Shown here: piece by piece, positions 7,879-32,500 of the stretch
Layout of the letters: each line of letters starts with the position of its first letter
Numbering within the stretch: the first letter of the stretch is position 1
Origin: Mytilus trossulus
Taxonomy: Eukaryota
DNA: 64,000 nucleotides
Assembly (NCBI RefSeq): GCF_036588685.1
Contig: NC_086378.1
Location: 60,078,001 to 60,142,000, forward strand
Reading direction: 5' to 3'
Notes under the pieces: model-generated
Told to the model about the DNA's origin: nothing
Seen by the model: the letters and a program-made list of their open reading frames with translations, nothing else
The model's database searches: none
Made by a program: the position numbers and the translations under genes

Positions 7879-10800
7879 ATGCCTTCTCCGCCGGACAAAG
7901 GCGGTACAGGAGAAAACGAAGTGAGAAGGAGAAAGACAAGAAGCCAGAGTAAAACAGAAAACAACGATGGTCAAAGTCAGCTCAATTCCGAGGAGAGTAA
8001 TGGATCTAATCAGGAAGTAGTTCATCAAACTATAGGTAGTCCACCAGCTACATCCGAGGCGATAGAACAACAAACCCAACAACAACAATGGCAGCCACAA
8101 CCCTATTACCAGGAAGTCCTTGTTGTTCCTCCAAACAGAATTATATTTGCTATTCCAAAATGGGTTGTTTACATTGGAACAGCTGTCATTGGCATCCTAT
8201 TTGTAGCTCTTGGTGGGTTTGTCGGAGACAAAATTTACAAAACATACTTCTTACCAGGTCAAATGTTACCAAACATGACATTTTCTGCTGTTGGAGATGA
8301 AGGATGGGAATTTTTCAAGAAATATGACCGTGACGGGGATCTGAAGCTGTCTCTTGATGAATATGAAACTCTATATCATACTCTCATAGCAAGTGGTATA
8401 AATGTATGTTATTTAATATGAAATATACACAATAATAAAAAAAAAAATTAAATAGACTATGAGGCAGGCATACACCTTATCGCTATTTGTCTTCCATAAC
8501 CAATAACTCGACATCAGACATTTTCACACAGGTTCCCAAAAAAATTTGACATCATATTATGAAATATCTAACGTCAATAGTTCAAGCAGGACAGATTCTT
8601 TGGTTGGTCAAGTATAGCGTTAAGGTGTATTACCTTAGTCCAAATAACTATACATGTACATGTATATGATGTCTGGTGTCTGGAAAGGCTATTAATATTT
8701 TTTGTTGATGTAAGGCGTCAAAGAAAAATATGATAGCCTTTAAAATTTAAGTCTACATAATTATTTGGAGTTTAGTATGACGTCCATTATCACTGTCCTA
8801 GTATACATATTTTTTAATGGGCCAGCTGAAGGACGTCTACTAGTACGGGAGTTTCTCACTTAATTGAAGACCAATTGGTGGCCTTCGGCTTTTGTCTGCT
8901 CTATGGTCGGGTTGTTGTCACTTTGACACATTCCCCATTCCTTTCTCAAAAGACTCAATTTTATAATTATTTGGAATAGCATTACTTATGTCATGAAAGG
9001 GACTTATTCAGTATGAATTATTTCTTTTTAATTAAATCATATAAACTTCAAAGTCAATTAGTCCGTTTAAAAAGAAACCGAAATACCATAACTTTTCCGA
9101 TTTTGGTCCTGATGTTTTAACTGCGATGTCATTTAAGTTATAAAGTCATTTTCAATGTTAAAAAAGAAATGCTATCATCAGGTAGTGTTTTTTATCTTGG
9201 AAAAATTGTTTTAAAAATTGTTATTGTCATGATTGTTCTGGACTTCCTATATTTTATACAAGACTGATACATGTACATGAATTATTAATATATTTTACCA
9301 AAAGTCTCATGACAAACGAAACCGGGAGAAAGAAAGAGTTTTCTGCAGGCTAAAGAAACACACAACAATACACAGTAAAACTCAGTTATTATTAATTCTT
9401 AAAAGTGAAAATAGAAATAGTTGATATATAACCTCCATGTTAATTTATATATACATTTGTATAATACATGTATAATATAATAAACAAGTCTAAATTGAAA
9501 ACAACATTCAAACCTATGATTGTGTTGGATAAAAATTGCAATTTTAATACATGTGCATGTAAAACAAATTTGTTTAGAGGTCTAAATACAGCACATATAT
9601 ATGTCAAAAAAATCAAAAAAGACCAAATAAGGGAAAACAGTATCTTTTAACAAAACACATTGGATTAACAGGTCATACAACTGATGTTCTTAAACACTGC
9701 TGACTGCCATTGATGAAAACAAATTTCGTTGTAGAGGGGGCTAAATACAGCACAAATGATAGATATACACAAATCTCCATCAGAAGCAGACATTACTACA
9801 AAAAAGTAACAATTTTATTATGATTTATTTTGTAGGTAACAACTGATCTTCAGTACAAGGCAGATTATACTGTAGGTAAAGATGAGCAAACCATTACAAT
9901 GCAGGCCTACTTCCAACCTCTACTGCTGGAAACCATGAATACCAACCTCAGTGATCCAGTATGTCATTTGATACTAGAAATTTAGAAAAAAATTTTATGT
10001 TTCAGGGTTTGTCATGTTTGTAGGGATTTTAAGTACAAAAAGCCCTATTGCTACACATATACAATGTATATGTTTTTTAGCCTTGGCTATTAATCATGAT
10101 TATGGCTTGTTATTAGTCAATGATAAATACAAGTGTTTGTCATTATTCTTAATATAATAGCTGATAATCTATATATTTATATGTTATACAAGTCAGCATG
10201 TCAGTAGAAATGTATAAAAATAATCTCAAACTATTTCTGAACAAAAGCATGAAACACGGAAAAAGCTTTGAAATATGTGAAAGGTGTTATACTTATACAT
10301 CATGTACTTATGCAATATGATTGACACACGTTGTCTCACATTGTGCACATGAACTAACTCATGAAAGCAAGAGAATACCTTAACCGTTATAAATTATTTT
10401 TAATCTATAATTTTTCATGTTTAGTTTTGTCATTTATTTCAAAATAAAGAATTTTAATTATCAAAGAACATACAGAAATTATAAAAGAAGTATAATATTT
10501 TGAATACTAGTTCCAAGTAGTAATAAAATAGAGAAAGAAAATGGGGAATGTGTCAAAGGAACAACAACCCGACCATTGTTTATATGTTACATATTTGTTT
10601 TTCGTTCACTTTTTTACATAAATGAGGCCGTTTGTTTTCTTGCTTGAATTGTTTCACATTGTCTAATCGGGGCCTTTAATAGCTGACTATATGCAGTATG
10701 GGCTTTGCTCATTGTTGAAGGCCATACGGTGACCTATAATTGTTAATGTTTGTGTCATTTTGGTCTTTTGTAGATAGTTGTCTCATTTGCAATCATACAC

Positions 10801-13800
10801 CATCTTCTTTTTTATAAGTAGTGTACATTATATATTCTATCAGCATGATCAGTATATATATGAAGCATTTATATTAAGAAGGGTTAAACTAAACCTAATT
10901 TGTTTGGAGATTGTACCAAGTCAGGCTATTTAAACAATATTTGTTGTTTAACGTTTGCTGTACATCTACTTTTATTTTTGTGGTCCTTGTGAACTTATTT
11001 AACTGTTTTTAACCCCTGATATGAATTTACTGTCATGTTTTTTGTATTGTTTGTAAATTATTTCAGTTAGAACAGATTGATTCATTAAAAGGCCTTCAAG
11101 AATGGAAAACACCCAACAAAGAGACGAAAGACTTTGGAGTGACCCAGTTCAAAGGATTTCTACCTCCAAATAACTCCTTTATCGAGGAACCAGGAAAGGT
11201 TTACCAAATTTGGAACATAAATAGTACCAGCCTGCCAGACATTCCAAGTCATAGGTCCAGTAATAAATGGCTGCCTCCTAGAGTTGAGGATGAATTAGTT
11301 GTGATACACCAGCTTCTGTCCATGTTCCATCCTCGTCCATTTCTAAGGTCCAGATTTCCACCACAAGGGGGAGTGGCAAGTGTACGAGCATACAACAAGG
11401 AATATCTGGATATAAGTTTCAGGTATGTGTTTTAACAAGCTAAACAAAAAGTAATTCAAACAAGTGGATTTCAGGATGTAGATATTAAATAAACTCCTGA
11501 TCAATAAAAGAGTTGAAATGTTGTTTTTGCGCCAGACACAGGTTTTGTCTACCAAAGACTCTTCAGCGACACTTGAATAATTTTTTTTCAGTGACACTCA
11601 AATAATTTATTTTTTTTAAAAGTCAAATGAGATATGAAGTTGAGGAGTACTGAGGACCAAAAATTCCTGAAAAATATACCAAATTTATACAATAATTAAG
11701 ATAAGATTTGGAGACAAGGGCAATATTATTTTTCATTCAATTTGATTTTTCTCACCTACAAATCTAATGACAAAAATTGATTGTTATGTAATACTGCAAT
11801 GTTCATGACTTGCAAGTATTTTCTCATAAGAATTATCATGAGATGAGTTATTAAACTACTGTATTAATGTGTTAGTTAGATGTAAATTGTATATTTTTGT
11901 GCTTTAGATTACATGCTGAGTTCCAATTAAGTGAACCCCCAAACAATCCCATGTGGTTTACACCAGCACAATTTACAGGAAACCTCATCATCTCAAGGGA
12001 TTACAAGAAACTCATATACTTCCATATGTATGTCCCTACAGATAAAAAACTGAATGTGGGTGAGTACTTCAATACTATTGGCAACCTCTTAGGAAACCAA
12101 CTTTACATTTTATATTAGAAATAAGGACTTAAAACTGCATTAACTATGATATATTACATCAACATTTCATATTAAGGATTCAATCATTTTAATTGGTGGA
12201 GAGCTATCACATATTTTTCTTTAAGTTATTTTTAATTAAAATTATCAGTCAGGGGACTTACTGAAATAAGTGATTTTCTAAATCACTGATTCAAGTAACA
12301 TTATTTCCATAAAGGTTGGAAGTTAGAGTTGTCTTTCTTTAATAATCATCTATTTAAGTAGTACAAATTAATCACTAGAAGAAGTGATTTAATTTTCTTG
12401 TAGCTTTAAATGTAGAATACTAATGATCCGGGGACTAATTGTGTTTCTAAACTTACCAGAACTAACATCTGTGTTGTCTAGGATGACCAGTTCATTTCAA
12501 CTGATGACCTTGTACTGAATCTAGGATAATGACATAAAAATCACTTGTTTAAGTATCAGACCTCAATTTCCTTCCCAAAAATCACTTCTTTAAGTATCAT
12601 TCTTTTAATAACCCCCACTAATTTCAACACCCCCAAACAGTGAAATTTTCATCGCTAACAGAAGAATTTAATTACATAATCTGAAAGATGAAACCTTGAA
12701 CTTCACAGGAAAAATATTCCCACTCCTGGGAAAAATCTTTTAAGAAAGTATTAGTTCGTTATGTAAAGCCATTATTATAGCATTTTTCAATTAAAATAGA
12801 TTTTTTTAGCTAAATGGTAGGATCAAAGGCTAAACCTTGCTACTTAAAGAAGCAATCAGTTCATATTTTTTTTAATTTTGCTAATTAAATTATGATAATA
12901 TTTAAACCTATGTGTTTAAAATTTTGAAAAAACTACAAAATCCCAATTAGTGACAAAACCCCGAATTTACTACTCAAATAAGTGATTTAAAAATCACTTA
13001 TTTCAGTAAGTCCCCTGACTGATTATAATAGAATATAACATCAATATATATATATAACTACATTTGTGTATATACTCTGTATATACTGTATATTTATGTA
13101 TTGCAAGTAGTGAGACTTTAATAAAATATTGAATCTTGAATCTTGAAACAACATGACAACTATAATACAAAATAGTGTGTATCCAATTTTTTCAAGAAAA
13201 TGAACAAAAGACCTTATCTACATTGTAACTATCAATTTCCTAATTTTAGCATTATTGCTTTCATAAAAAGTAAATGCTTCCTGTTCATGGTTTTGTAGGG
13301 TTGTTAAAGCATTGATTCTAAACATGTTTTAAGAATGTTGGCCTTCCAAAATGGTTAACCAAGATTTTTATGCCCCACCTACGATAGTAGAGGGGCAGTA
13401 TGTTTTCTGGTCTGTGCCTCAGTTTGTTCGTCCGTTCGTTCGTCGGTTCGTTCGTCCCGCTTCAGGTTAAAGTTTTTGGTAGAGGTAGTTTTTGATGGAG
13501 TTGAGGTCCAATCAATTTGAAACTTAGTTCACATGTTCCCTATGATATGATCTTTCTAATTTTAATGTCAAATTAAAGTATTGACCTTAATTTCATGGTC
13601 CACTGAACAAAGAAAAAGATAGTGTGAAGCTCAGGTTAAAGTTTTTGGTCAAGGTAGTTTTTGATGAAGTTAAAGTCCAATCAACTTGAAACTTAGTACA
13701 CATGTTAACTATGATATGATCTTTCTAATTTTTAATGCCAAATTAAAGTATTGTCCCCAATTTCACGGTCCAGTGAACATGTTAAATGATAGTGCGAGTG

Positions 13801-16800
13801 GGGCATCCGTGTACTATGGACACATTCTTGTTTTATCTTTATTTCAAAGTGATTTGTCTTTTTTGACCCCTGGTACATTATTTATGATTTTCATGTTGTT
13901 CTTACTGTTTAAAATTTATTTCTGGTTTACATGTGAAATTGCAATTACTCAGTAGATATATACATAATTATTTTGTTTTTCCATTTCAGACATGGAATGG
14001 ATAAATGATATAGAGACAGCAGCTGCTATGCAGGTAGACATTGGATTCTTACCACAAATGGAGATGAATATGATTAGCACTACAACAGATTCGGAAAAGA
14101 CAGTCAAAGGAATTAAATGGACAAACGAAATACCAGAATTTGATGTTAAAAGGAAGATAGAGATCAAAATGTATCCATTTAAAGAGGTATATATAATTTT
14201 TTTACTACATCCATGTTTTAAATTGAAACCGGTAATACTATTTTTCTTCTTCTGTTCTTAACCTCTTTCAATCTTTTAGTCTTAAGTACTATACCAGTGA
14301 ACTGATTTCAGATAATCTGTAAAACATTATGACAATCTGAGGTTCTGAATTCCCTTTGAAACGTGTCATTTATGAAATAACAGTCATGTTTTTTTAAACT
14401 CCGACAGCATCAATTGGTAATTCAATGTTGGCAAATTAATTTTTACTGGTTTTGACTGTCATTTAAGACAGGTGCCACTGTTCTTTTTTATTATAAAAAA
14501 TCATTTATTTTACAATTAGCATGATTATAAAGATATTGATCATTCATGTTGATACTTTTTATCAGAAAATTTTATGGAAAAAGATTATCCATAAATATAG
14601 ATTCTTACATTGGTACCAGTGGATTATCGGATTTATCCAATCGAGATAGTTAACTATCGAGATTGGATAAATCTGATAATTCACGAGTAACTATGTAAGA
14701 ATCTGTTTCTCTAATGATTAAAACATACATTTTCTTTTTTAGTTAACCGAAAATCCCCTTCGAGCGCCTTTCACATTGCACGAAGTTGTCAATTTCATTA
14801 CCACCTGTTATAGCATATTTTGATTCATTCATGTTAGCTAAAAAGGTCATGACCCTTAAAATCACCCAATCATCTTCTGAGATCACCGGCAACCACACGT
14901 TGATTAAATTTTTTTTATACAATGGGTTCGGAAAGGGATAAATTTCCATAGAATTAGAGAAAAGAAAATATTGATTGGTTCAAAAATGTCAACATTTATC
15001 AACAGCTAAAATTTGATGATATGATTAGCTTTATATCCTAATTTTATTTTTCTATGCTTTTAGGTGCCATACTTCAACTTCACCGACTCCTTTGAAAGAG
15101 CACAAGAGGAAGACAAATTAGTGCACTCTATATTACTTTGGGGTGCACTGGATGATCAGAGTTGCTGAGGTTCTGGGCGGACACTCCGGGATACTTCCCT
15201 GGAGAGTCCGCCCGTTGTAGCTCTTCTTAAAGAGAGCTATATCAGTAACTGGGCACTTGTTGCTGATTTGCAGGTAACAATTATGAACAAAGAAAGATAA
15301 CTCCAATTTATAATATGTATTTTTATCTTGATGTCAGATTCAGTGTTCACAAGCACTCATCTTATGGTTAAAAAGTAATGTAAGTAGCATGGAAAAGATG
15401 TAAGCAAAATTTAGATATAGAAATTGTGTCACACTACAAATTCATTTACATATAGAATTTTCATATTTATATCAAAATAAACTCACAAGATACAACATGG
15501 CTTTCTTTTTCTTCTATCCGTATTTGGTATTAAATTACAGCACTGTTGGTATAATAATAAATTAAGAAATACTATTTATGATATAAAACATGATAAATAT
15601 ATTTAGAGTTATTCTGAATTTCGTATGCGTTTTCAGCTTTGTATTATATTAACTGGTGATCCATTGAATGGATCTGTCTTGTGTTGTTACTTGTTTAGAT
15701 GTACTTAATAACATAATTAATATTCATAATAATATTTATGATTTACAGGAGCTTGAAAAAGATCCTCATCAGCCAGTGTACAGTAAAACAGCCAGTCATT
15801 TCTTACAGAATTATAAATTCCCTGTTATGATGTATCTGGCTCTGAAAAATGGTACTATCGTACACAGGGTCAATGCTAATGATTTCATGCACTCACCAGA
15901 GGGTGAATATAGTGTATCAATGATGGACTCTTTTTGGCAGCTATTGTAAGTAAGATAAGAATCAAAACTTGTATATAAATATAAGAAGATGTGGTATGAG
16001 TTCCAATGAGACAACTCATGTAGTTTGCTTTTAAGTTATTTATTTATTAAAAGAAATGTTTTGAGGGGGAATTAAATGAGATGGTACCAGGGAAGTTATA
16101 TGTTTTTAACAAGTATAAGTGGTAATTAGATTTTAGCAAGTTTATAAGAATAATAAGATTTGGTATGAATGTCAATGTGACAACTATCTTCCAGTGACCA
16201 AAAGACTTGGGATTGAGCAGATATATTATTTCTTTGTGGACTTCTGAAGTCCTTACTTCATTTTTTACATTTCCAATTTTTATGGAATAGAGCTTAGGAT
16301 GGTAAGCCTTATATGACACCCTTGAAAACACATTTGCTCTCTAAGTTTTGGAGAGAGAAAAAGTTGTACTGTGGGTTCATTTATTTTCGTGGATATCAAT
16401 TTTTGTGGATTGATGAAAATTTACATTTCCGTGGATATCTGAATTTGTGGTTTGCCAATTTCTATGTACAAAGCCTATAGAAAATTTGTTATTCGTTGAA
16501 CATATGAATTCGTGGTTCACCTGTACCCAGGAAACCCACGAAAATTGGTATCCAACGAATAATAATGAATCCACAGTAATTGATATTTTAATATATTTAT
16601 TTTGAAACAGAAACTTGGAAATGTTTTTCATTGTGTGGATAAAAAGTGTTTTGTTTTCTTGATAAAAGCACAAATATTCATATACATTGTATATTGCAAT
16701 TGCTGTCACTAAAATAAAAGGAGAAAGAATAATTGATTGTTTATTATTGGTTGACAGTTCCGGAGATGAAGGGTTGATACCTACAAGGAAAGTAACAACT

Positions 16801-18844
16801 CAACGCCCAGAACTGTTCCGTGAAAAGAGGATGGAAAAAAGAGAAGAAATTCCACCGTAAGTTTAACAGTAAAAATTTTAAAGTCAAAGGGTTTTATATC
16901 TCTAATCTTTTAAAGGTTTTAGAAGTTATTGTTCAAATAGAAATATCCTATATAAAATAAAATAATTGATAATAGTTTGTGTATGTACAGCTAGATTTAA
17001 CCAGATTTTTTTTTAGCAAGATGTTAGTTTGTGATATTTGGAAAGATTAGAACTTGTTCTAAATCTTTACTTAGGCACCACCCTTCCTAACAACAGGACA
17101 GGTTAGCTACTGTTACTAAATGTATTCACACTAAAATATAGTTCCCTATAGTTCTCATGTATGTGCACATAATACACAAATAAACTGAAAAAACTGGGTA
17201 TATTATTGGAGCAGTTCATTCAAGAGTGTATGTCATTAATGTGTGTTGATGTGCAGGCTTTTTTTAAAAACATTTTGATTAGGTAAGTGGGTATTGATTC
17301 AACTAGTATGATTGACAACTGTCATTATCACTAAACAATCAGAGACAAGGTGGACTTTTAATTACAATGCCCCACCCCCTAAACTGCCAATCAAATTGAC
17401 CACATTACCTATCTACATCAGTCTTACATAATTGTACAGACCACTCCAATATGCATCTAATTCTTAATACACAAGTATTTGACCTCATAATTGATTACAC
17501 AAATGTGTGTATTATTTGTTTGATATTTATAAGGATGATAGATTTATTTATTGCCAATTACTTTTGATCTACATTACATAAAGTAGTTCTGTAAATTATA
17601 TCTGAAAGATAAATGATTAATGGATTAGCAAGATCTTAAACAAATGAAATATGAATATAAATATGAATATATAAAAGGTATTCAAGTATGGCCTATAATT
17701 TACTTGATAAATTTCCAATAATCATCTGTAATTAATCAACAATTTAGATTAGTTCACTTTTTTATCAGGAATTGGCTTGAAACAGTTTTAAAATTTATAA
17801 ACTTTTAATTATAAACATGATAAAAAAAACCATTGTTAATTAGTTAATATTTCCCATCCATCATTATGCCTATTTTAGTCATTTGAATTTTTATTAGAAG
17901 TAAATATATGTTTTTGCAATCAAGAAAGAATCCACATTTCAATAACATTAGTTTTTTAATTAGTTTACTTTAAAAAATAAAATGGAAAATGCCCTGTGTT
18001 GAAAAATACATTAAAATTTGATCAAAAGGCACTCTAAAACTTTTAATTTTCAATGCCATATAACCTCTGTTTTTACCTACAAAATGCCCCAAAACAACAT
18101 TTTTAGATTATTTTTGTTGGCACTTAAAAGCTTTTAGCTGTTGGTCTAAATTTATGTCTTACAAGGATATTTGGTAACATTTACTAGAAGAATTTTTGCA
18201 TTTTTTTGTTTTTTTGAAACATGTTCAGAACCGGCAACATAATTTCAATTAGATATAAACTACAGTTTAAATAAAATTGTGCAAATTTAGAGACCCATAT
18301 TATTTAATTTGAGCTCATTTATCCTCATACTGGAAAAGCAAGTTTCCTTCTAAAGACCTGCTGTAAATGCAATTTTCAGCAATAGTGTTTTATAAATGTT
18401 CATTTTTCCCCACCATACCTTAATATGAAATAATTCAAACTACTGTTCTAATCTTTCCATGAGTTATATCCATCACTTTGATTATACAGAGAGCTTTAAA
18501 CAAGACAGTAGTTTTTGAATGCTTTTAAGATGAGAAATTGTGAAATATTTAATACAATGCGGTTTAAAGATATTAAGACAGAATGGTACTACAAAATGAA
18601 CATAAGAAAACTCATTCAGTGGTGGATTCTATGGGAATGGCTTAGAGGGCCTACATATTTTTGGATCATCATCCTCATGTTTACCCATTAAAATCCACAA
18701 ATTTTTGTACGAACAAATAAAAATGAATGCATTGAAAATATTTTTTAAATACTTTTCTTGTATATTTTCAGGGAACATACAAATGAAGAGAAATATTTAC
18801 AATTTTTAAAGGAGGGTGTGAGAAGAGCCCAAAATTATTTGTAA
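7879..18844 (+). CDS. SELENON: Selenoprotein N (ER membrane EF-hand/thioredoxin-like selenoprotein), 9 coding exons, ~643 aa, Sec at about residue 486
   Basis: Exons 7879-8403, 9836-9958, 11067-11422, 11908-12059, 13990-14186, 15064-15273, 15749-15945, 16758-16856, 18772-18844; all GT-AG and phase-compatible. N-terminal TM helix ([21 protein letters not shown]), EF-hand ([13 protein letters not shown]), and SELENON motifs [110 protein letters not shown]. Confidence 0.96.
12246..13021. mobile_element. Non-autonomous DNA transposon (MITE) in SELENON intron 4
   Basis: ~30-bp perfect TIR CAGTCAGGGGACTTACTGAAATAAGTGATT / AATCACTTATTTCAGTAAGTCCCCTGACTG; ATTAT on both flanks; internal AATCACT subrepeats. 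Confidence 0.85.
13365..13834 (+). mobile_element. Helentron-associated (HINE/DINE-1/pearl-like) non-autonomous element with an internal tandem repeat
   Basis: 5' TTTTTATGCCCCAC sub-terminal IR matched by GTGGGGCAT near 13798, a (GTTC/GTCC)n microsatellite at ~13425-13458, two ~169-bp units (TCAGGTTAAAGTTTTTGGT at 13462 and 13631), and a 3' hairpin GTGTac-tat-gGACAC followed by a T-run. Confidence 0.75.
14599..14704. repeat. ~106-bp imperfect palindrome, probably the core of a Crypton-like non-autonomous element
   Basis: AGATTCTTACAT...ATTATCGGATTTATCCAATC gA GATAGTTAACTATC gA GATTGGATAAATCTGATAAT...ATGTAAGAATCT. Confidence 0.7.
15064..15273 (+). CDS. SELENON: SELENON exon 6 containing the in-frame selenocysteine UGA (15166-15168)
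   Basis: tttag|GTG CCA TAC ... CAG AGT TGC TGA GGT TCT GGG CGG ... TTG CAG|gtaaca; 210 nt, phase 0-0; conserved protein sequence continues on both sides of the TGA. Missing from the ORF track. Confidence 0.95.
15175..15213 (+). promoter_or_regulatory. Selenocysteine redefinition element (SRE) stem-loop in the SELENON coding sequence
   Basis: Starts 6 nt after the UGA: GGGCGGAC-A-CTCC-GGGA-(TACT)-TCCC-T-GGAG-A-GTCCGCCC; 8+4+4 Watson-Crick pairs, 27/39 GC in an AT-rich gene; same position as the SRE described for vertebrate SEPN1. Confidence 0.88.
16369..16576. mobile_element. Tc1/mariner-type MITE in SELENON intron 7
   Basis: TA|CTGTGGGTTCATTTATTTTCGT ... ACGAATAATAATGAATCCACAG|TA with TCGTGG/CCACGA subrepeats. 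Confidence 0.75.
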
Positions 18845-20630: not shown

Positions 20631-20705
20631 AATATTATACATGTAATGAAGGTCACATGTTAAAGTAGGTCACTACCTAATGGGACTTGATGTAATGTGT
20701 GTATT
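20631..20705 (+). promoter_or_regulatory. SECIS element (form 2) in the SELENON 3'UTR
   Basis: AUGA 20646-20649, 12 nt, AAA 20662-20664, apical mini-stem GUAG(GUCA)CUAC, UGAU 20688-20691; helix II GGUCACAU/AUGGGACU; helix I AUACAU/AUGUGU extended by AAUA/UAUU; AATAAA follows at 20753-20758. Confidence 0.9.
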
Positions 20706-20752: not shown

Positions 20753-20758
20753 AATAAA
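20753..20758 (+). terminator. Probable SELENON polyadenylation signal
   Basis: First AATAAA downstream of the SECIS, followed by a T/GT-rich tract; a second lies at 20854-20859. Confidence 0.55.
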
Positions 20759-26500: not shown

Positions 26501-29500
26501 ATTTTAATAATTTATGTATACTTCAAGTTTTAAGATTGCATACTTTATTTTTACCTTTTTTGATAGTTTGATAGTAAATGACTTTAAAGCACCAAAAAGC
26601 GCAATAACATTAGCGTCAGATAGTGATGTCGAATGGAAAGCTACTAAACTTGGATTAAAAATTGATGGAACATTCAGATATATATTGTAAGATTTTAATT
26701 TATGTTTTTATAAATGCACAAACGGGCTAATATCATAAGATTATTAGTAATAGTATAATAAATAGTTGTCACTTTTCAATAAGGTTTCTTTTTTTTTGGT
26801 TTATATAAATATAAAATATTGTAAATGTTAACTAGTAAAGTGCTCAAAAACGAAAAAAAATGTCATAAAGAGTTTAAATCTCAGGCAAAAATCACAACAC
26901 AAACAAGTAGTTAAAACTGCTGCTTAAATCACTTGTTTTTTTGTTTTTTTTACAGTTCTATGCATTGCAACTTATTACGAATATAACAGGAACTAAATTA
27001 TATCTGTAGAAGAACAAACAAATTAAACATATATCTAACAGAGGAGAATTTATCTGGGGTGCCACAATGAAAGAGCAGTAGGACAGCAAACACTAAAAAA
27101 ATCGTAAAATCGCATAAGAATAGTACGGAGACCCTTAAGTGCCAAAGATGAAATTAAAAATGTTTGTGCGTGCGACTTTAAATCTTGTGCGCACAACTTT
27201 AGATCTTCAGCGCACAACTTTTAAACTTGTGCGCACAACTTTAAATCTTGTGCGCACAACTTTTAATCTTGAGCGCACAACTTTTTAAAACTTGTGCGCA
27301 CAACTTTTTAAAACTTGTGCGCACAACTATTTTTAATTTGTGCACACAACTTTTTTAATCTTGTGCGCACAACTTCAAGTCTTGTGCGCACTACTTTTAT
27401 TCCTGTGCGCACAACTTTTTGAAACTTGTGTGCACAACTTTTTAAAACTTGTGCGCACAACTTTTAAACTTGTACGCACAATTTTTAATCTTGTGCGCAC
27501 AACTATAATTCTTGTGCGCACAACTTTTAATCTTGTGCGCACAACTTTTTTGATCTTGTGCACACAACTTTTAAACTTGTGCGCACAACTGTTAAACTTG
27601 TGCGCATAAATTGTAATCTTGTGCGCACAACTTTTTAAAACTATATATATGTTAGGGTTATTGATTGCATGATTACATGAGCGTTTTGATGCTTCTTTAC
27701 CGATCACAATGTATTGTTTTTAATGACTATATGGTTGCGTTATTTCATTGGTATGATTTGATTTCATTACTGAAGGAAATGGTTTAATGACTAACCAATA
27801 TAAAATTTCATTTGTATGGGATTACCAAAGCACAACAATGAGTGATAACATGATTTATATTTGCATCTCACCCCCTAAGAAGGACTCGATATATCTACAT
27901 CCGTGTAGAGGAGAAGGGGTGATAAGGATCAACTTTGTTACAAATATATACATAGTACCATCAAAGTATAAAACACATGCGCACAACAACTAAATATTTT
28001 ATCATGTAACATTGTCGTTATAATTCCCTAAATATGAAGTTGTGTTTGTTTTGCACTCGATGTTTACCAGAATCTAGATATTTTCAACGATGAAATAAAA
28101 GCAGGCAAACATTGACTTAGTATCGGATAGATGCATATTTTCTCCAATTAGATATAAAGAAAGAAGATGGGGTATTGTTGCCAATGAGAGAAACATGACC
28201 TTGTGCAAGACCTATATATTTTCCATGTGCTTCATTTAAGATATGACTGCATTATCATTGTTAATTCTAATTTCTAGAGAATATCTTTAAATTGTTTGTA
28301 TATTGATAACTTTTTTAATGCTTTGTCCTCATAAATGCTGGTACCCAAAAATCACTGGGCATTGATTATCAAAACATGACTGGGGCTTATTGACGTCACT
28401 AGCTCACATGGTCCTTCTGATAACAGCTTAACTGTTCGAATTAGCTACAATGCAAGACAATGCAGTATATGTTTATCCTTATGATTTATTTACAAAATAA
28501 TACAGTCACGTAGAAGGTTCCTTGCTTGATTAATTAGCAAATGAAAGAAATATTGACATATATGACTTATAGTTTTGTGGACAGTTTAAACAGTCGCACG
28601 TTCAAGTCTACTTTAAACGTTGTGCGTTCAAATCAAAAAGGTGTTTCAAAAAATTGTGCGCACAAGTTGAAAAAAGTTATGCGCACAAGATTCAAAGTTG
28701 TGCGCACAAGTTCAAAAAAGTTGTGTGCACAAGTTTTGAAAAGTTGTGCGCACAAGTTTTAAAAAGTTGTGCGCACAAGATTAAAAGTTGTGCGCACAAG
28801 ATTTAAAGTTGTGCGCACAAGTTTAAAAGTTGTGCCCTCAAGTTTAAAAGTTGTGCCCTCAAGTTTAAAAGTCTCGCGCACAAATATTTTTAATTTCATC
28901 TTTAGCACTTAAGGGGCTCCGTAGAATAGACAAGATTTTTTTGTGTATTGGTATAATTTTATTGGTAAAATGTCAGTCGTTGAACACATTGGCTCATTTG
29001 ATGCAAACAAATCTTCAGATACCAGCAGTTATAGACAATAACGAGGAAAACCCCATTGTAAGCGGCTCTATAAGGCCCGACATTAATACTATGAAAGATT
29101 TGAATTGAGAAAACTAACGGCATTATTTATAGCGTAATACCATGCATTTTCCTCATATAATATAATAATTTTTTATTTGATATATTTATCGATCTATTTT
29201 CAGCCTTTTTATTAAAGGAAGGGGCGATTTCACAGTTAAAGCGTCAGACCTCTCATTTGCTGTTGGAATTCAAATCGGTAATGCAGTTTGATGTATTTAA
29301 GTTTATAATTTCATGTTCACAACTTTCTTCTGACAAGGTTTTTTCCATATGCTATGATCTTGCTTTTTCGTAAATTTGTATTCTAAAATCCTGTAGGGGT
29401 AAATGCACAACTAATTAATGCTCCAGTCGTTATAAACAAATGTAATTAACAATTCAATCAATAAATCTGTTGGACTGATTCATGTACAAAAGAATAAACG

Positions 29501-32500
29501 AAGAACAAAATATAAACACAAAAACAAACATCAAGCCTTTTATAGCTGACTATATGCGGTATGGGCTTTGCTCATTGTTGAAGTCCGTACGGTGACCTGT
29601 AATTGTTAATGTTTGTGTCATTTTGGTCTTTTGTGGATAGTGAATAGTTGTCTCATTGGCAATCATACCACATCTTCTTTTTTATATCAACCACTGAGTT
29701 AAAGGCTTTTGACTGGGAAAAAAACACATACATATTGGGGCGGGGTTAATATAAAAAAGAAGATGTGGTATGATTGCTAATGAGACAAATATCAACAAAA
29801 GACCAAAATGACACAAACATTAACAATTATAGGTCACCGTACGGCCTTCAACAATGAGCAAAGCCCATACCGCATATAGTCAGCTATAAAAGGCCCCGAT
29901 AAGACAATGTAAAACAATTCAAGCGAGAAAACTAACGGCCTTACTTATGTAAAAAAAATGAACGTTTTGTCTTTTTTCAGGGGTGGATACCAATGGAAAA
30001 CCAACTATTCAAACAACGTCATGTGACTGTAAAATTGGTCCACTTCAAATCAAATTCAAAGGCAAAAGAGCATGGATTTACAACATATTAACATCATTAG
30101 CTTCAAACGCTATTGCAACAATGTTACAGAAAAAAGTAGGTAACACGAAAAACAAATATTTAAATGTATATAGGATGAAATACAATTATCTCAAAATGAC
30201 ATGTCGTGTAGGAATACAAGTTACAAATATGCAACGATTTTGTTTAGAAACTTTCATACTTTCAATTTTAACAAAGTTTGAAAAATATAATAATGACCAT
30301 GATAATAATAAAACGAATAGGAAATTTACTCTACCTATGAGTTTTACTTCGGTAAATACTGTCATCTTAATTACTCTGACTAAAGGAAATTTTATTTCCT
30401 AAATGTTCATTAATTATAATGTGTACACTTGATTTTAGGTGTGCGAAAAAGTAAAAGACGTTCTAGACAAGAAGGCAGAAGAGGAACTGTGTTCATTTCA
30501 AGGTAAATTGTCTGTCTGACTATTATGATACCTGTACATATGCTCCAAGTGTATATTGTATTTAGACATGCACTTTTACCTCACTTGACGTTTTAACCTG
30601 CAATGTTATAAAAACAGATCCTAAAACATTAATTGCATTACAGATTATTTTTCATAGTAAATAAATAGTGGTAGCATTTGTGAACTTATTGTTTGTTCAG
30701 TCACATTTCATGAATTCTTGATAATTCACTATATATTTTTGTTTTTCTAATGTTTATTTCGATGGTCTTAGGAGTTGCTCTTTTCATATTGTTCTTACCT
30801 GAAAGGAGAAACAGAGCAGTTTCAAAGTTGCCTCAAGTAGAATGCATTGTTGCCTAAAACGATATTGAAAGTATTAAATTGAAATCTGAAACAAAACCAA
30901 TAATGACACTTCCACTTTCTTCGCTTTATTTTTGATAAAAATAAGGAGTGTCGTGGTGTAATGTTAAAAAATAATATACTATTATACCCTTTTTTACTGT
31001 CAGACTTTCAATGCTATATCTTAACTGTTTGTAACAATACTGAATAAAGTACTTTTACAGCTGAGGTACAGTTGGGAGAACATTTGACTCTGGATTACAG
31101 ACTCCTGTCAGCTCCTCATATAACATCAGAATATATCGAAGGGGATTTCAAAGTTAGTACATGTATATCAAATCTACAGCTCTAAATTTTTGAAGTCCAG
31201 TTTATACAGCACTAAAACTACCCGATATTACCCGTGTTCATTACTTTAGAAAACGTACAAATAATTTCTTACTGAGGTTACGTATAATGTTGATTATTTA
31301 AAAAAAAAAAAACCCGAGAAGATATAAGATTAACTATCTTTCAGACTTCAAATTGATTGCAATATAAGTTTTCGACAATTTTAAACATTTCACAGTCGTA
31401 CATCATAATATGGCACACATACATGTAGTACAGCTGTGTTAAAAAAACAAACAATCATGCAACAGACAACATAAACAAGTTAATGTTAACGTTTTCCAAT
31501 GGATAGAGATTAAATTACGTGTGTTGGCTTTTTCATCAAGTGCGCTGAATGCAATAATATGTGCAGAGCACACTGGAATATTAAATTTTAGATAATATAT
31601 TGTTGATATGATTTATATATAAATGACCTGCACTGTCTTTTATAGGGAGAGGTATTCTGGACAATGAACCGGACAGAAGCACCATTCGCCCCGTCTCAAA
31701 TGGCTACCATCACGGACAATAAGAAGATGGTTTACCTTACGGTATCCGACTATATTTTCAACTCTTTAGGATACCAAGCACATGCGCATGGGCTGTTGGT
31801 GTATAATCTAACGTCTCAAAAAGTATGTAAATGATACGATTAACTTATTCGAAAAATTTGCATTGAATGTATTTGAGTTTTTAATTGACGAAATTCAAAA
31901 TAAATTCGTATTATTATTTTTTTTTCAATATGAAATGATAAACAAAACATGTAGAACATTGAAAAAAAAATGCGATTTTACTTGAAATTTAGAACGTAAA
32001 TATAACTACTCTTGAACATTGATGTAGTGAAACTGTTAGGAATGGATATTTATTAATAGGGGGGGGGGATCAACAGCCAGAAAAAGCTATAATTTATTGC
32101 ATTTCTTTATCTCAAAGTCCATTGGTGCATTCACACTTTTTTAACACTTCATACAAGTTTCAGCACATAGAAAAAGCGTATGCGTTACTGAGAGTTTAAA
32201 GAAGGATCATCATATGTCTTTCTTAAAAAATAATATTCAAGATCTTTATGCATGTATGTTTCATTTAGATGAGAGGGGATGGCGATCTACTCAACACCAC
32301 ATGTGCTGATACCTGTATCGGAAAACTTATTCCACAGGTAAATATTTTTAAGAACAACACCCTTTTTCCTCCTATATTTAAAACAGATTTTTACATTTTT
32401 TCTAATATGTTTTGCTGTGACATCAATGTCCGTGGTTTTGACAGGGTTGTGTCCACACACACTCATGTTTATCTCTGTATACCACATACTTTATTTCCGA

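Follow-up and report, generated by a model that had tools for sequence, protein, structure and literature searches.

The hairpin behind the in-frame UGA of a Mytilus SELENON gene is very probably an SRE kept by selection on base pairing

Shortly after an in-frame UGA, the SELENON gene of Mytilus trossulus is predicted to form a strong hairpin, which raises the question of whether this stretch is kept for its RNA structure or for the peptide that it encodes. The SELENON SRE is a known element, already described in human. Mutations in the human SRE occur in SELENON myopathy, and how the element works is still under debate. We analysed the hairpin within a 64,000-nucleotide stretch of mussel DNA (the window) and in related genes. 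The findings indicate that 15175-15213 is very probably the mussel SELENON SRE, kept by base-pairing selection and likely to favour Sec insertion over termination. The identification is based on orthology, a 6-nt spacer and a 16-bp stem.

The SELENON coding region occupies 7879..18844 of the forward strand, on which all features below also lie. It has 9 exons and 8 GT-AG introns, encodes 643 aa and ends in a TAA stop at 18842-18844. When the exons were joined, the reading frame held a single internal TGA at codon 486 (15166..15168), the predicted selenocysteine of an SCUG motif. This codon is directly preceded by a Cys codon (15163..15165) and is separated from the stem by a 6-nt spacer encoding Gly-Ser (15169..15174). 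The UGA and the SRE lie together in exon 6 (15064..15273) with no intervening intron, and the true stop is three introns downstream. Exon-by-exon comparison with a Mytilus edulis record gave mostly 92-100% match per exon. Contigs from public runs crossed at least six of the eight joints, among those listed, including 9958 to 11069. The joint after exon 6 (15270 to 15746) was crossed in three of four runs, with 200 letters on the shorter side; that these runs are RNA is no more than a guess, and the spliced joints served solely as a check of the gene model. In the 3′ UTR, a candidate type II SECIS (20636..20703) has an AUGA/GA quartet, an apical AAA and a mini-stem. Its RF00031 score was 21.6 bits, against an Rfam gathering score of 35, and 81 of 81 bases were the same in a second genomic copy of the gene. 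Downstream of it, AATAAA at 20753..20758 is a possible poly(A) signal, from the sequence alone. Public Mytilus SELENON protein records P0027, P0040 and P0050, which lack either the stretch around the Sec codon or the exon altogether, are evidently mis-annotated when set beside this gene model. Within intron 4, long contigs of several runs matched 12269-12757 with many shared differences; this stretch may be a repeat that is transcribed, or a further exon.

The predicted hairpin extends over 15175..15213 (+7 to +45 after the UGA), its stem starting 6 nt past that codon. It consists of a lower stem (15175-15182/15206-15213), a middle stem (15184-15187/15201-15204), an apical stem (15188-15191/15196-15199) and the apical loop UACU (15192-15195), giving 8+4+4 pairs, interrupted by a 1x1 A.A loop and a single bulged U and capped by the loop of 4 nt. 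The three stems and the loop were thus present as the earlier note had described them. The lowest-energy fold has the 4-nt loop, and two registers are populated. The hairpin had a stability of -30.4 kcal/mol (z -6.9; 0/200 dinucleotide shuffles equally stable) and was the top fold among 617 coding windows of 13 codons, the runner-up elsewhere reaching -18.3. An equally stable fold was found in none of 20,000 synonymous recodings drawn from the codon usage of the gene, in 1/20,000 drawn uniformly and in 1/20,000 rich in GC at third positions. An Rfam search of the hairpin gave no match at the gathering cut-off or at E<=10. Two weaker predicted hairpins flank the UGA and SRE in exon 6 (15112-15156 and 15208-15252), with z of about -4 against codon nulls. 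The upstream one, at 15112-15156, is not general: upstream control windows showed no structure shared across lineages.

The human SRE is reported to have a 16-bp stem starting 6 nt after the UGA (PMC3159437). According to PMC3159437, PMC8704476, PMC6844570 and PMC3541580, it acts against termination and promotes Sec insertion, and SRE mutations found in patients reduce SELENON; its loop has 5 nt, and the loop sequence is reported to matter (PMC8704476). The mussel element shares with it the orthologous gene and codons, the 6-nt spacer, a 16-bp stem with a 1x1 loop, and compensatory conservation. It differs in that the predicted loop has 4 nt, an additional U is bulged, the apex is slipped by one register, and no intron lies between the UGA and the stem. 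L028, a teleost-like locus, is predicted to fold with 9+7 bp and a 5-nt loop, as published for human; relative to it, the mussel 1x1 loop sits one step lower. By analogy with the human element, the stem would stand at the mRNA entry channel while the UGA occupies the A site and would hinder release-factor action; this delay would let the 3′ UTR SECIS/SECISBP2/eEFSec complex bring Sec-tRNA. Amino-acid changes in the 3′ arm would be tolerated only with a matching change in the 5′ arm, the two being coupled because both arms are coding.

An RNA-selected hairpin might instead act mainly on mRNA stability, on ribosome pausing (e.g. as protection from nonsense-mediated decay) or through Sec-independent readthrough. 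Such a main role fits the location of the mussel UGA three introns 5′ of the true stop, and also the reports that the human SRE stimulates readthrough without a SECIS and at other stop codons and that one SRE mutation destabilises the human mRNA (PMC3159437, PMC6844570, PMC5397149). However, stem mutation is reported in the same papers to lower Sec insertion, and the spacer is a constant 6 nt, as expected for action on the decoding ribosome. We consider it improbable that stability or generic readthrough is the main role; these roles and Sec insertion are not exclusive.

Relatives were sought in metagenomes with a degenerate pattern for the peptide that leads up to the Sec/Cys codon, this codon included; the hairpin region was left free. 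The search returned 61 loci, all 61 with TGA though the pattern permitted Cys codons; a Cys-containing homologue, which would have served as a loss-of-structure control, was found at 0/61. Fifty loci were animal-type, a label inferred for most rows with few named anchors; nine looked bacterial, one was protist-like (L045) and one, L057, lacked the next exon. L036 clustered at 90% with Clytia hemisphaerica. In a protein tree, unrooted and with 3/59 rows removed for short coverage, other loci fell, weakly supported, beside molluscs and an annelid, beside the cnidarian, or in a basal position. The pairing alignment held 32 distinct animal-type sequences, which collapsed by flank identity to 30 lineages; L057 (next exon not in the contig) and L042 (short flank) were left out of the 30-lineage set, and L016 and L042 were left out of alignment A1. 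The spacer between UGA and stem was 6 nt in every animal-type sequence of the gap-free alignment. In 15 animal-type loci an intron begins one base past the TGA, so that the element opens the exon. In L016 and L042, an AT-rich animal-type lineage, the SRE loop is interrupted by an intron of 52 nt, and the lower stem was predicted both before and after splicing. The idea that this stem forms only after splicing was dropped, as unspliced RNA gives the same lower stem. The protist-like L045 (1124-1204) has the TGA, but no hairpin is predicted where the SRE would lie.

The mussel genome itself provided two further copies. A near-identical one (L062, L069-L070; G000:C6, about 49.4 Mb) lies 10.7 Mb away, with exons 96-100% identical, and is either a recent duplicate or an uncollapsed haplotype. 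Its sole exon 6 change is a silent site within the SRE, which moves the bulge and retains the stem (-30.6 vs -32.1 over +1 to +48). An older paralogue (L064, L071-L072; G000:C3, about 31.74 Mb) carries a TGA, an SRE and a SECIS-like element of its own, the last at L072 798-866 with 28.3 bits. Its SRE differs at 5/39 positions, which amount to one compensatory pair (a G-C to A-U swap), one pair gained, one lost and one loop change.

The hairpin frame encodes 13 residues, from the third codon past the TGA. The earlier note had described these amino acids as drifting, which the comparison contradicted: vertebrates share 10/13 of them and sea urchin 12/13. The peptide used there as human, GRTLRETVLESSP, is present in marmoset, coelacanth and damselfish proteins and absent from the one human record examined. 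Vertebrate identity of the flanks was 25-26/34 upstream and 10-11/20 downstream; conservation of the hairpin peptide equals that of the upstream motif and exceeds that of the next 20 residues. The Ser-to-Pro change also occurs in sea urchin and beaver proteins. The proposal that the mussel changes convert a G-U pair to G-C fits the combinations CGG with TCG (five lineages) and CGG with CCG (four), which come from non-human sequences. The residues of the hairpin change only in pairing-preserving ways.

Could protein conservation together with local GC-rich codons yield a hairpin as a by-product, from a conserved peptide that happens to fold? The conserved peptide and the GC-rich codons of Gly, Arg and Pro speak for it, as does base composition. 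The GC content of 69% was confirmed (27/39), and GC-ending codons number 9/13 (the earlier note gave 8) vs 194/597 elsewhere in the gene (Fisher p 0.013). However, eight other 13-codon windows, at four further places in the gene, also reach 9/13, and the third-position bias is for that reason a weak argument for RNA selection alone. What counts against the by-product is that recodings for the same peptide are so rarely as stable, even with GC-rich third positions, and that silent sites covary with their pairing partners, which protein-level selection cannot cause.

Compensatory evolution was seen in the lower stem. Over the 32 distinct sequences, a 13-pair core was 91.6% paired, and 6/13 pairs showed change on both sides; its score was reached by 0/500 shuffles, and slid structures were 27-50% paired. 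Pair +12/+40 was paired in 30/30 lineages with five pair types: Arg4 CGA (14) and CGG (5) accompany Ser TCG; CGG also accompanies Pro CCG (4) and Leu CTG (1); and Ala GCG (6) is found with CGC or CGT. Pro14 occurred only alongside Arg4 CGG (4/4) and Ala14 only alongside CGC/CGT (6/6). Because one side of this pair is silent, coevolution at the protein level cannot explain the pairing, which points to selection on the RNA. Pairs +8/+44 and +9/+43 change from G-C to C-G in the lineages with GSAR...SAG or ...CPR, where two amino acids are altered together, and +15/+37 swaps along with Ser to Cys. Parsimony on a flank-based tree counted 8 joint changes at +12/+40, 4 at +9/+43, 3 at +8/+44 and 3 at +15/+37; these counts are approximate, the tree being weak (5/27 branches starred). 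Only four of 5,555 variable column pairs were paired in all 30 lineages, two of them SRE pairs and two Y.G wobble artefacts.

Codon choice gave the same picture. Stem codons were frozen (Ser13 AGT 27/27, Ser14 TCG 19/19, Pro15 CCC 19/21, Arg4 CGN 30/30), in contrast to the invariant residues upstream, which were synonymously saturated, and the silent third bases of Arg4 and Gly3 followed their pairing partners. Against a codon-preserving null, 29/30 lineages beat at least 495 of 500 recodings, L041 being the lone failure; for the upstream control windows the counts were 2/30 and 3/30. The selection on RNA structure that the earlier note had proposed is thus borne out by covariation, frozen synonymous stem codons and codon-preserving nulls, and a by-product of protein conservation is a very improbable source of the hairpin. 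Nor is a splicing signal or DNA-level element at all likely to be the constraint: the 15 loci with an intron one base after the TGA would suit it, but the stem is retained without that intron in the mussel window and with the 52-nt loop intron in L016/L042, and what is conserved is compensatory pairing, not primary sequence.

The selected SRE is not uniform along its length. The lower 8-9 pairs are its conserved core, above which the predicted apical helix slips between registers (53 in 12, 52 in 9, 51 in 7 and 50 in 2 of the 30 animal-type lineages). Pair +19/+33 was unpaired in 15/32 sequences. The 4-nt loop is predicted in mussel and is not conserved across animals, since the closing pair of the window was held in 4/32; the top helix and this loop are, as far as the aligned sequences tell, lineage-specific. 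These natural variants would imply that the lower 8-9 pairs matter and that the apex and loop do not, and they offer a clean example of RNA structure dictating amino-acid substitutions beside a catalytic residue. The reach to lophotrochozoans holds for the mussel element, the sole named mollusc DNA being Mytilus, and the range is wider, extending to the Clytia-like cnidarian. The codon before the UGA was TGC in 30/30 animal-type lineages, with the neighbouring Asp codons split 18/12 and 14/16 and Gln(-3) CAG in 27/30; in the GC-rich bacterial metagenome loci it was TGT in 4/9. The invariant TGC is possibly a 5′ context signal.

Our literature search found nothing on a SELENON SRE in molluscs or cnidarians; the original SRE papers (Howard 2005, 2007; Maiti 2009) lay outside its coverage, and part of the range extension may already have been published. 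SelN genes have been published for Lottia, Capitella, Nematostella and Amphimedon, with no mention of an SRE in the main text (PMC3473315). Stem-loops termed SRE or HRE are reported as predicted in all UGA-containing eukaryotic SPS genes; like these and SELENOP SRE1, the mussel element is a coding-region stem-loop near a Sec UGA of the kind reported or predicted to aid recoding, in a different gene (PMC4561486, PMC5727441).

Homologues of Planctomycetota type bear on the origin of SELENON and of SREs. Nine high-GC metagenome loci and three GTDB Planctomycetota genomes (L001, L004, L008, L012, L022, L040, L054, L055, L058, L065-L067) combine an in-frame TGA with a SECIS-like hairpin. A GTDB search with the bacterial protein gave no match; the three genomes came from a DNA pattern search. 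The proteins, about 460 aa where complete, are hydrophobic in an N-terminal segment and share the DDQSC-TGA. The 150 database relatives are recorded as hypothetical proteins that break off at the TGA; among the best 120 of them, 119 stop exactly at the TGA codon and one has Leu. selA scored over the cut-off in 3/3 genomes and selB in 2/3, the third having matches on two contigs. The bacterial hairpin has a 7-bp stem paired in 84/84 cells, a GGUC loop 24 nt from the UGA and a stability of -9.3 to -12.8 kcal/mol; its covariation was not significant (42/500). Rfam did not recognise these hairpins, and NCBIfam held no model for the homologues. An unpublished thesis reportedly treats a Poribacteria SelN homologue, and a literature search for a paper on it found none. 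A 2026 table of 119 prokaryotic selenoprotein families contains no SELENON-like family in the available part of PMC13188914. The same source describes a bacterial SECIS by a loop of 3-9 nt that begins with G and lies 16-37 nt from the UGA, a stem of 4-16 bp, an MFE of at most -7.5 and Sec machinery in the genome; the hairpin of the bacterial homologues has these features. Its top 10 nt equal those of the E. coli fdhF SECIS, and it sits 6 nt farther from the UGA.

The mussel SRE is, likewise, a coding-region hairpin soon after a UGA. It differs from a bacterial SECIS in its long lower stem, to which nothing in the bacterial SELENON genes corresponds, and in the 3′ UTR SECIS-like element of its gene. 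To our knowledge, eukaryotes lack a SECIS-binding SelB. The mussel loop is UACU; neither of its first two bases is a G, unlike in the loops described in PMC13188914.

A resemblance of SREs to the bacterial SECIS has been remarked before (PMC12936836, PMC4561486), and a bSECIS-to-SRE hypothesis was proposed for SPS genes (PMC4561486). For SELENON, the animal SRE could be a relic of a bacterial SECIS: the gene would derive from a planctomycete-type bacterial selenoprotein with a SelB-binding hairpin at the same codons, and eukaryotes would have retained this hairpin and lengthened it downward. The resulting readthrough enhancer would have constrained the residues next to the catalytic selenocysteine since before the cnidarian-bilaterian split. 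We regard this origin as doubtful. In its favour, the same codons are involved, the bacterial loop lies at +25 to +28 and the mussel loop at +24 to +27, and the bacterial register is the commonest in animals (12/30). Against it, the bacteria lack the lower stem, the remaining registers account for 18/30 animals, nothing of the GGUC loop is retained beyond a Gly codon, and the lone protist-like homologue (L045) has no hairpin; moreover, a bacterial SECIS must fall 16-37 nt past the UGA, so a match in position is expected. The tree is unrooted and, having no outgroup, does not give the direction of transfer. If true, the relic reading would add SELENON to the SPS genes as a second family relevant to the bSECIS-to-SRE hypothesis (PMC4561486).

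Elsewhere in the window, tandem or inverted repeat-like stretches at 27150-27630, 28620-28850 and 29589-29840 gave rise to spurious Rfam miRNA matches; the last of them resembles back-to-back copies of a common mussel repeat.
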